Shown: positions 30,404 to 32,556 of the stretch, one piece after another
Position numbering within the stretch: the stretch's first letter is position 1
Layout: the number at the start of each line of letters is the position of its first letter
NCBI GenBank assembly: GCA_964474165.1
Contig: CAYYRL010000001.1
Span: 13,854 to 53,331, forward strand
Length of the DNA stretch: 39,478 bases
Direction of reading: 5' to 3'
Source: an uncultured Candidatus Saccharimonadales bacterium
GTDB taxonomy: Bacteria > Patescibacteriota > Saccharimonadia > UBA4664 > DATIHN01
Program-made: the position numbers and the translations under genes
The notes under the pieces: generated by a model
Databases searched by the model: none
Seen by the model: only the letters and a program-made list of their open reading frames with translations
What the model was told of the DNA's origin: nothing

Positions 30404-31512
30404 GATCTCTTCATTACTAATATTAAGCGTCCAACGGTCTGGCCTGGCCGCTGATAAATCAACGGATAGGGGGCGTGAACAAACTGCCTTGTAGTATAGC
30501 CTAATCTGGAGATTTGGTCAACAACTCCAGGCAGACGCTGGCCAGCTTGCCAGGCGGGCAAACATAGCACCACCGGCAGCTCCGCTGGTGTGCTAGTGGC
30601 CAGGTGTTTTAAAAAACGGGTAGTTAGCTGCGAGATTTCAGCGTCGGCATCATCTAGCTGCTTTGTGCTCGGGGAGCCGGAGAAAGCTGGTCCGAGGTAG
30701 CCTTCGCTGACAATTGTGGTCACGTCTGGCGGCATGGCCACATTAGTAGCATTGGCTTGGACCACCTGCCATTCGGGTAATTGTTTAGATTGTCCAGATA
30801 ACCACTGCATATTGTCCTGGGCGGCTCTGACCATCTTGGCATCAATATCACTACCTAGTATTGGTCGACCCATAAGTCTAGCTTCCTGCAGAACCACACC
30901 AGTTCCGCAAAAGGGGTCATAAACTAGACCCTGGCTGGTGCCACTGAGATTAATCAAAATCTGGGCCAGTTTGGGCGGCAGCATGCCAACCCGAGCATCG
31001 CGGCTGGGCCGGCCGTAATCACGCTGCGAGTAGGCATCGACATCCTGGTAGCTGGTAGTGACGGCTGCGATAGTGCGATCCTTGGTGGCCAAGATGATCA
31101 GTTCCGGATTGCTGGTATCTAGATGGTTAAACTTCAGCTGGGCAGCCGTCAGGGCTAGGCTCGGGCGTTTGGGTAAAACCAAACGGACCGATCGACTAGT
31201 CCGGAGGCGTTTTTTTAGCTCCATGCCCAGGCGTATGGGATCAGCTGGTGTAAATTTACCGTAGAGACTAAGGCCCAGGTTCAGTTTTTCTGATCCACCT
31301 GGCAGCTGAAGAGCGATGGCTTCTAGATCAAGATTTGGATCATCATAAACCACCTGGGCCAGCTTGATCACCCCGCCCAATTTGGCTAAATCTGGTTTAA
31401 CTGCCAACAGGGCGTGGGAGTCGATGGGAGTGATGGCATCAGCACCGGTAACTGCCTCCAGCTCAGCTAGACTGAGAATTGACTGCCGGCCGAGAATTGC
31501 CAGATATGACAT
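30367..31512 (-). CDS. SAM-dependent RNA methyltransferase-like protein (UPF0020/THUMP-associated type)
   Basis: Motif I is [19 protein letters not shown]...GSDID. ATG 31512 is preferred because TGcTACAAT lies 6 nt upstream. The 3' end overlaps the rpmA start by 37 nt. Confidence 0.6.
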
Positions 31513-31518
31513 GAGCTC

Positions 31519-31527
31519 ATTGTAGCA
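31519..31527 (-). promoter_or_regulatory. Extended -10 box placed for a leaderless methyltransferase mRNA (minus strand)
   Basis: The minus strand reads TGcTACAAT, then 6 nt (gagctc), then ATG (31512). Confidence 0.45.
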
Positions 31528-31544
31528 TCCACACAAGATGCTTC

Positions 31545-31553
31545 TGGTATAAT
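31545..31553 (+). promoter_or_regulatory. Extended -10 box placed for a leaderless UPF0104 mRNA (plus strand)
   Basis: TGgTATAAT, then 7 nt, then ATG 31561. It is back-to-back with the minus-strand box in a 48-bp divergent spacer. Confidence 0.45.
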
Positions 31554-31560
31554 CATGATC

Positions 31561-32556
31561 ATGAAGATACGCAGCCTGTTGCAATGGGTAGGGTTTGCCG
31601 CCCTTGCATTACTGCTGATATTGGCTCGCCACCGGATAATCGATGCTGGCCACCAAGCCGTCCATGCTCGTTGGTACATTTTGGTTTTGTTTATTGTGAT
31701 GCAAGTTGGCAGTTATTGGTTTAATGCCAAATACTATCAGAGCTTTTTTAAAATCTTCGGCTATAAGGTGCCGGTCAAAGTCCTATATATCCGCTCCTTG
31801 GTAGTCAATTTCGTAAACCAAGCCTTCCCGTCTGGTGGTATTTCAGGCACCTCTTATTTATCAACTAGCCTCAAAGCTTACGTCCCGCCGGGTAAAACCA
31901 CCTTAGCTCAGGTGATGAACTACGCCTTCACCGTAGCTTCATTTCTTATCGTCCTGTCGTCTGGTTTCATTCTGTTATTTTTAACTGGTCGCTTGGACCA
32001 GGCATCGGTCAGGGTCATTATGCTGTTTATCCTGATTATCGTGATAGTTGCCATTGTCACCGCCGCCATCGTCAATGACCGGCGCCGAGTTCATGCTGTG
32101 GCACGGGTGATAGTCAGGCGCCTAAATGGTTTCTGCAAGAAAGTCTTTCGGTTTAAGCGCAACTTGATAAGCGATGCCAAGCTAGACCGATTCATTGAGG
32201 AGTTTTACCACGGCTACCAGGTTTTTTCCGAAGAGCGCGGTCACTGGCGAATGCCTTTTCTAAACAGCCTGGGATATAACGTGACCGAAGTAGCCACTAT
32301 TTATGTGGTATTCTTGGCCTTCGGTTCGGCGCCAAATCCCGGAGCTGTGATTGTTGCCTATACGCTGGCCAACCTACTAAGCTTTGCAGCTATCTTTACC
32401 AACGGCGCTGGCGTCTATGAAGCCACTATGATTGGTACTTTGGTGGCTCTCGGGGTGCCGTTTAATACGGCCTTGCCGGTGGTAGTAGTTTACCGGGTGC
32501 TAAACTTCGCCGTCTTTTTGCCGATTGGTTATTACTATTACCGAAAGACGGTCTAA
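31561..32556 (+). CDS. Polytopic membrane protein, UPF0104 / lysylphosphatidylglycerol-synthase-TM-region-like
   Basis: About 8 hydrophobic segments and an FPSGGISGTSYL-type loop. The family assignment is tentative. The track start 31555 is in frame, 2 codons upstream. Confidence 0.5.
   Translation: MKIRSLLQWVGFAALALLLILARHRIIDAGHQAVHARWYILVLFIVMQVGSYWFNAKYYQSFFKIFGYKVPVKVLYIRSLVVNFVNQAFPSGGISGTSYLSTSLKAYVPPGKTTLAQVMNYAFTVASFLIVLSSGFILLFLTGRLDQASVRVIMLFILIIVIVAIVTAAIVNDRRRVHAVARVIVRRLNGFCKKVFRFKRNLISDAKLDRFIEEFYHGYQVFSEERGHWRMPFLNSLGYNVTEVATIYVVFLAFGSAPNPGAVIVAYTLANLLSFAAIFTNGAGVYEATMIGTLVALGVPFNTALPVVVVYRVLNFAVFLPIGYYYYRKTV

Follow-up and report, generated by a model that had tools for sequence, protein, structure and literature searches.

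The window analysed in this work is a stretch of 39,478 nucleotides (nt) from contig C1:13854-53331 in the metagenome-assembled genome (MAG) of an uncultured Saccharibacteria bacterium (TM7, candidate phyla radiation (CPR)/Patescibacteria). Nine genes of the window carry a -10 promoter hexamer (box) only 6 or 7 nt upstream of the start codon. About one gene in ten of the genome, and about 30% of the genes that clearly come first in a transcription unit, have such a box 6-7 bases before the start codon, and the mRNA of these genes probably begins at that codon. An earlier, sequence-only reading of the window had interpreted this layout as leaderless transcription, and the interpretation is supported by the genomic comparisons reported here. 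The best explanation, which we consider quite likely, is that leaderless mRNAs would be made from -35-independent nGnTAnAAT promoters, with initiation at other genes led by Shine-Dalgarno (SD) sites or coupled. What was observed is the motif together with its position and statistics, its link to unit-first genes, and its conservation in orthologs; from these we infer that the boxes are used as promoters.

The assembly comprises 660,442 bp in 55 contigs with 52% G+C and is estimated to be 89% complete. Over the whole assembly, 696 genes were called using a simple codon-usage model. Gap denotes the number of nt between the last base of the hexamer and the start codon. The gap counts were obtained using the longest open reading frame (ORF) start of each gene, which is a choice blind to the motif, and a box was counted when at least five of the six positions match TATAAT with A2 and T6 fixed. 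Operon boundaries were inferred from gene spacing only. Two relatives were compared using partial DNA of each: G002, which belongs to the same family, and G007, which belongs to another family of the order.

Boxed genes of the window

The nine genes and their boxes are given below.

11875..11893, plus strand: lysS (class I LysRS); box TGaTACAAT 11875-11883; ATG 11888 (gap 4) and in-frame ATG 11891 (gap 7)
13478..13493, plus strand: serS; box TATAAT 13478-13483; gap 7; ATG 13491
17863..17881, plus strand: murD; box TGtTATCAT 17863-17871; gap 7; ATG 17879
19815..19829, minus strand: murI; box TACAAT, plus coordinates 19824-19829; gap 6; ATG with its A at 19817
24535..24549, plus strand: prfB; box TATAAT 24535-24540; gap 6; ATG 24547
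25658..25676, plus strand: ftsE; box TGgTAAAAT 25658-25666; gap 7; GTG 25674
29689..29707, plus strand: REC (receiver-domain gene); box TGcTATGCT 29689-29697; gap 7; ATG 29705
31510..31527, minus strand: methyltransferase (methylase); box TGcTACAAT, plus coordinates 31519-31527; gap 6; ATG with its A at 31512
31545..31563, plus strand: UPF0104/LPG_synthase_TM gene; box TGgTATAAT 31545-31553; gap 7; ATG 31561

All coordinates of the boxes, start codons, and gaps match the sequence as the sequence-only reading had listed them. The gene identities that it had proposed are borne out by Pfam, which identified class I LysRS, SerS, a Mur ligase, an Asp/Glu racemase, the PCRF and RF-1 domains of an RF-2 type release factor (prfB), an ABC ATPase (ftsE), a receiver domain (REC), a methyltransferase, and LPG_synthase_TM, which is the UPF0104 of the earlier reading. 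About 40 genes were called in the window, and exactly the nine listed genes and no others were flagged with a box. The absence of an SD between box and start also holds, as GGAG, GAGG, or AGGA was found there in none of the nine genes. The extended TGn had been assigned to five of the nine genes; its presence stands, and the correct count is six (lysS, murD, ftsE, REC, methylase, and UPF0104). G occupies position -14 in eight of the nine boxes. The gap of 6-7 nt holds for all nine genes, and genome-wide the commonest gap is 6 rather than 7.

The longest-ORF start differs from the box-supported start in six of the nine genes. The shorter starts that follow from the box layout are in line with the N-termini of orthologs and the beginnings of the Pfam profiles in prfB, methylase, UPF0104, lysS, and serS. 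The aligned ortholog N-termini favour ATG 24547 (prfB), 31512 (methylase), 31561 (UPF0104), and 11888/11891 (lysS). The Pfam profiles cover the proposed proteins from residue 1 or close to it (the Seryl_tRNA_N profile of serS begins at residue 1), which leaves no room for a hidden downstream start. ATG 24547 of prfB supersedes the longest-ORF start GTG 24481, and the longer ORF of methylase would begin at TTG 31584. The longer-ORF ATG 29693 of REC falls inside the box, and the alternative ATG 31555 of UPF0104 sits 1 nt past the box. The N-terminus of UPF0104 has a conserved M-K-x-R that aligns with 31561, and in most of about 45 loci TAnnnT precedes the start by 6-10 nt.

Several boxes are placed very close to an upstream gene. 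The murD box begins 2 nt past the secA stop codon, and serS, murD, ftsE, and REC lie 17-47 nt behind a co-directional gene. A terminator-like hairpin was found upstream of one of the nine genes, lysS, at 11848-11863. REC is the weakest of the nine cases: its box TATGCT matches only four of six positions, and its ortholog in G002 is led by the SD GGAGGA instead of a box.

Genome-wide enrichment and character of the motif

A TATAAT-like hexamer was identified at gap 6 in 35 genes and at gap 7 in 13 genes, and the background mean is 4.3 genes per gap at gaps 9-40. The N6-7 spacing, whose enrichment the sequence-only reading had suggested checking across the genome, is strongly enriched (Poisson P = 3e-20). 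No gap-6 or gap-7 peak was found at 7,500 internal in-frame ATG, GTG, and TTG codons. The same script identified one gene at gap 6 and one gene at gap 7 in 200 kb of E. coli K-12, together with a normal SD peak. The signature is present in 97 genes when all candidate starts within the first 50 codons are allowed, a count in which the choice among candidate starts can favour the motif. The weight-matrix excess over other gaps corresponds to about 65-70 genes, or about 10% of genes. The signature was found at 29% (38/130) of the genes with a divergent upstream neighbour, and at 23%, 11%, and 8% of the genes that lie 20-59 nt, at least 60 nt, and less than 20 nt behind a co-directional gene, respectively.

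The sites aligned on the hexamer give nGnTAtAAT, in which hexamer positions 1, 2, and 6 (T, A, and T) are near-invariant. G is present at -14 in 64 of 91 aligned sites (70%) and T at -15 in 33 of 91. The full TG is present in 26 of 100 sites genome-wide and in 6 of 9 sites in the window. The aligned sites hold no information upstream of -14. The best TTGACA match 16-19 bp upstream, taken as a candidate -35 element, is distributed as at random genome positions, and a scan of the window for consensus -35/-10 pairs was not enriched (20 sites compared to 16 +/- 3.9 in shuffles).

The base before the start codon was also compared between classes. Genes of the gap-6 class have a pyrimidine at -1 in 51/60 cases compared to 234/426 for SD genes (P = 5e-6), beside the purine at +1 that is the A or G of the start codon. 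Transcription starts typically show the arrangement Y(-1)R(+1). At gap-7 genes, position -1 is often A and position -2 a pyrimidine, so that some gap-7 genes may have a one-base leader. An SD motif was found at only one of 100 boxed starts. ATG is used at 76-78% of the boxed starts compared to 57% of the SD genes.

One sigma-70 family gene was found in the 89%-complete assembly, and it encodes a full-length RpoD with regions 1.1, 1.2, 2, 3, and 4.

G000 (genome of the window) C16:13189-13398 (locus L247 1009-2121), minus strand: rpoD, directly downstream of dnaG

SD sites are also used in this genome. GGAG, GAGG, or AGGA forms a peak at gaps 5-8 before about 35-40% of the longest-ORF starts and is flat at internal codons. 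Among the genes that the earlier reading had described as SD-led, rpsB, greA, secA, and the CHAP gene are confirmed, mreB is ambiguous, and the LPXTG protein and the island ORFs were not confirmed by name. The anti-SD, whose inspection had been suggested, was examined in nine related genomes, where all ten 16S 3' ends retrieved read GGATCACCTCCTTTCT and keep it intact; the 16S gene was not found in the MAG assembly. As the anti-SD is intact in relatives and the SD peak is present at genes other than the boxed ones, two initiation modes appear to coexist, which agrees with the earlier reading.

Further observations concern the SD-led genes and the 16S genes. In the secA and CHAP genes (15150-15188 and 27290-27324), about 24-30 nt separate a TATAAT or TACAAT box from the start and an SD lies between, and short leaders of about 17-25 nt seem, from such spacings, to be the other common promoter layout. 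G002, which is the closest complete relative, has 16S sequences on two contigs (C2:6077-6818, L100; C4:34447-36000, L090), one of them full and the other partial. Their 3' ends differ in sequence, and G002 may be a mixed bin.

The loss of bS1 was considered as a correlate of leaderless translation and was ruled out, as a four-domain bS1 is present in all 21 genomes searched, that is, in the genome of the window and likewise in all 20 relatives. A short or four-domain bS1 has been described for CPR (PMC9297842).

G000 C19:799-1791: bS1, four S1 domains, frame of about 390 amino acids

Conservation in relatives and the divergent pair

The gap-6 box was identified in 15/152 genes of G002 and in 48/827 genes of G007, with the same peak position in both. 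For the ortholog test, a box was sought at gap 5-9 from the aligned start. In G007, the box is kept in 25/43 orthologs of boxed genes compared to 10/171 orthologs of SD-class genes (Fisher P = 1.5e-13), and the orthologs of boxed genes share a mean of 51% amino-acid identity. In G002, it is kept in 12/16 compared to 3/52 SD-class orthologs (P = 9e-8).

Among the nine genes of the window, serS, prfB, ftsE, and lysS retain the layout in both relatives. The lysS orthologs have TACAAT 7 nt before ATG. The serS orthologs have TATAAT or TATACT 8 nt before the sole candidate ATG. The prfB orthologs share the aligned ATG as their start, which TATAAT precedes by 7 to 9 nt. In the ftsE orthologs GTG is again the start and TAGAAT or TAAAAT stands at gap 6, an arrangement conserved also in L158. 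The layout is retained for methylase in G007 and for UPF0104 in G002. The murD ortholog in G007 is SD-led instead, with GGAGG before ATG, and no murI ortholog was found in the examined parts of G007 and G002.

The layout was also identified outside these families. G095, which belongs to the same class and a different order, exhibits peaks at gaps 6 and 8. G043, which belongs to another CPR class and has 36% G+C, exhibits a strong gap-6 peak spread over gaps 6-9 and an almost flat SD profile in the sample C1:1-400000 (loci L207-L226); leaderless or non-SD initiation may be far more important to it than to the genome of the window. G062, from another CPR class, exhibits a strong SD signal and a weak box peak. 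Of 29 prfB loci drawn from across the phylum, 9 have a box at gap 6-8 that matches at least five of six positions. Judged from these box counts, the trait is wider than the family of the window yet variable.

The frame of prfB also differs among the genomes. The window prfB (24547-25641) is open throughout in one frame and has no +1 programmed frameshift site. About 10 of the 29 prfB loci, which are from other CPR genomes, have a frame that opens only at about codon 15-21, the pattern expected of the classical frameshift arrangement.

The methylase and UPF0104 genes are divergent, and the spacer between them holds both predicted promoters.

31513..31560, both strands: divergent spacer of 48 bp between methylase and UPF0104, holding both predicted promoters

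The two hexamers lie at 31519-31524 on the minus strand and at 31548-31553 on the plus strand, with 23 bp between them. The transcription starts predicted from the positions of the boxes, 31512 and 31561, are 49 bp apart. The gene arrangement is syntenic across Saccharibacteria. TAnnnT is present 5-10 nt before both starts in 34 of the 38 Saccharibacteria loci with both N-termini alignable. At the threshold of at least five of six matches, a box is present on both sides in 23/38 loci, on the methylase side in 34, and on the UPF0104 side in 26. The spacer is otherwise unalignable and varies from 21 to 1134 bp in length (102 bp or less in 33/38 loci), so that selection, as judged from these alignments, is on each box-to-ATG distance and on nothing upstream. 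Such selection fits promoters that have no need of a -35 element.

The sequence-only reading had singled out the window pair as packed back to back. The packing into 48 bp holds, and a special status of the pair does not. Six double-boxed pairs with spacers of 36-73 bp were identified among about 65 divergent pairs of the genome, and 5.5 are expected if the two sides are independent; the window pair therefore follows from the general habit. The pair was also considered as a bidirectional promoter element, which was ruled out as the hexamers do not overlap and the predicted starts are 49 bp apart. Overlapping hexamers on opposite strands were identified in relatives L066 (spacer of 22 bp, about 1975-2003) and L067 (spacer of 21 bp, about 1898-2003), with the sequences AGTATATACT and ATTATACT, respectively. 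Either spacer would make up an entire control region that is bidirectional and leaderless on both sides.

Proposed mechanism, known systems, and wider meaning

The proposed mechanism is as follows. About 65-100 of the approximately 700 genes would carry a housekeeping-sigma promoter nGnTAnAAT whose last T is 6 nt, or in the minority of cases 7 nt, from the start codon. Transcription by RNA polymerase carrying the single RpoD would begin at the first base of the start codon, A or G, or one base earlier. The resulting mRNA would lack a 5' leader and an SD. Actinobacteria, Deinococcus, and lambda cI mRNA serve as models for the next step, in which the ribosome would bind directly to the 5'-terminal AUG or GUG. 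The remaining genes would use ordinary SD-led initiation or coupling within operons. Promoters of the -10-only kind would fit into spacers of 17-50 bp, right after an upstream stop codon, or back to back in 48 bp, and such short promoter-bearing spacers would be possible because only the -10 region matters.

Some findings weigh against this explanation. A co-directional gene ends only 15-60 nt ahead of many boxed genes, mostly with no detectable terminator, so that longer transcripts running over their starts are probable; read-through transcripts with an internal SD-less start probably also exist for such genes. The layout is not fixed, as 18/43 G007 orthologs of boxed genes are without a box. 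The idea that boxed genes have a less folded 5' mRNA end than SD genes was rejected: no difference in folding energy was found between them, and the 5' ends of both classes are less structured than internal windows. All percentages are approximate since the gene starts come from our own crude gene caller.

In an alternative reading, the boxes are real promoters that are minor or conditional, the genes are mainly expressed from read-through or from promoters further upstream, and the SD-less start is translated within the longer mRNA by coupling or 70S scanning. The closeness of serS, murD, ftsE, and REC (17-47 nt) to a co-directional gene, the terminator-like hairpin that precedes lysS only among the nine upstream regions, and the 8% of genes that are boxed even when less than 20 nt behind a co-directional gene are all consistent with it. 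However, the position of the box is conserved relative to the start codon and not to the upstream gene, the box is commonest at divergent genes (29%), where read-through is impossible, and the SD is absent at 99 of 100 boxed starts, a lack that would come at a cost if these genes relied mainly on internal initiation. We therefore consider this alternative unlikely. Another alternative takes TAnnnT as a non-SD ribosome-binding site or A/U-rich enhancer on leadered mRNAs, as in the "group B" of GeneMarkS-2. The motif does lie in the same distance range as the SD, a four-domain bS1 is present, and at least one other CPR genome (G043) is almost without an SD signal. However, the A at -11 and the T at -7 of the hexamer, which are the positions read by sigma region 2, are the invariant ones, and we know of no role in ribosome binding for the G at -14 or the pyrimidine at -1. 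The anti-SD is also intact in relatives, and the SD is used elsewhere in the genome. The motif is moreover concentrated at unit-first genes, which is the criterion dividing group C from group B (PMC6028130), and this alternative is even less probable than read-through. A chance or compositional effect of A+T-rich upstream sequence, or an artefact of start choice, was tested and rejected, and hardly any weight is left for it. The upstream regions are somewhat A+T-rich, and picking among candidate starts can favour the motif. Nevertheless, the peak is present with motif-blind longest-ORF starts, is confined to one or two positions, is absent at internal start codons and in E. coli, and marks a box that is conserved in orthologs.

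The layout was compared with known systems. The group C of GeneMarkS-2 comprises genomes with a Pribnow box 6-8 nt from the start of operon-first genes and with an estimated 25-50% of operons leaderless (Lomsadze et al., 2018, PMC6028130). According to that paper, the group consists mainly of Actinobacteria and Deinococcus-Thermus, and SD sites serve the other genes (PMC6028130). The genome of the window is similar to group C in the box at gaps 6-7, the concentration at unit-first genes, the SD at other genes, and the proportion of boxed genes (about 29% of the unambiguous unit-first genes). Unlike the main lineages of group C, it belongs to Saccharibacteria, with 0.66 Mb assembled, a single sigma factor, and very short intergenic spacers.

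Mapping of transcription start sites (TSS) in M. tuberculosis has revealed a TANNNT -10 element with no -35 motif, often with CGN before the box, a purine at +1, and a pyrimidine at -1, and about a quarter of the genes with a primary TSS are leaderless (Cortes et al., 2013, PMC3898074). The boxed genes here likewise exhibit TAnnnT, no -35 element, a common G at -14, and Y(-1)R(+1). However, transcription starts were measured there and are inferred here, the leaderless genes of M. tuberculosis use ATG and GTG about equally whereas ATG dominates here (76-78%), and the box here is much nearer to the full TATAAT. Deinococcus deserti is a further leaderless system for comparison (PMC4007540).

Bidirectional promoters have a symmetrical -10 element with divergent starts 7-25 bp apart, usually 18, according to a summary of the work of Warman et al. 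(2021, in PMC10268837). The window pair resembles them in its divergent transcription, its very short region, and the -10 as the sole strong signal, but consists of two back-to-back promoters with separate hexamers and predicted starts 49 bp apart. L066 and L067 conform to the definition of bidirectional promoters by sequence geometry alone. The extended -10 (TGn) promoters of E. coli and Bacillus share with the boxed genes the independence from -35 and the conserved G at -14. In contrast to those promoters, T at -15 is not conserved here (33/91), and the full TGn is present in about a quarter of the sites.

No paper on the leaderless layout in Saccharibacteria or CPR was found in the literature search, outside of which lay the supplementary tables of GeneMarkS-2. 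A TM7x transcriptome preprint makes no mention of transcription starts, untranslated regions, leaders, or promoters. A promoter survey of 2025 gives 188 TM7x starts inferred from RNA-seq coverage and does not comment on leaders (PMC12641261). The mechanism itself is well known and no new mechanism is proposed; what differs is the lineage, for which no report was found.

It appears somewhat more probable than otherwise that nGnTAnAAT leaderless expression is an old, class-wide habit of Saccharibacteria that reaches other CPR classes. If this is true, the habit would be preserved at the level of individual genes such as prfB, ftsE, serS, and the methyltransferase/UPF0104 pair, and CPR would be the third large leaderless-rich clade of bacteria after Actinobacteria and Deinococcus-Thermus. 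Complete two-gene control regions would then measure 21-50 bp and would include truly bidirectional leaderless promoters. As a speculation, the grammar of promoters and initiation could be shared with the actinobacterial hosts of cultivated Saccharibacteria. In terms of evolution, a deep, genome-reduced lineage would join the leaderless-rich bacteria, which bears on the ancestry of the trait in Terrabacteria-like groups, and the layout also bears on the minimum size of an intergenic region.

The box layout has practical bearings too. Start prediction in CPR MAGs mostly uses models of ribosome-binding sites, which extend or misplace leaderless starts, and the layout therefore bears on start-codon annotation in CPR genomes. 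Saccharibacteria have recently become genetically tractable, and a bare -10 box with ATG may be a complete expression signal for the design of constructs.

Other features of the window were also recorded. No Rfam families or tRNAs were found in the window. The lysS product (11891-13450) is a class I LysRS (Pfam PF01921), an enzyme that is typical of archaea and a minority of bacteria. The region 20000-24000 has a G+C content of 0.57-0.59 compared to about 0.51, together with a sign change of the GC skew. It holds ORFs with no Pfam match at 20065-21135 and 21713-23110 and a DUF7927 protein at 23326-24459, all of which are SD-led, and it may be a foreign island.

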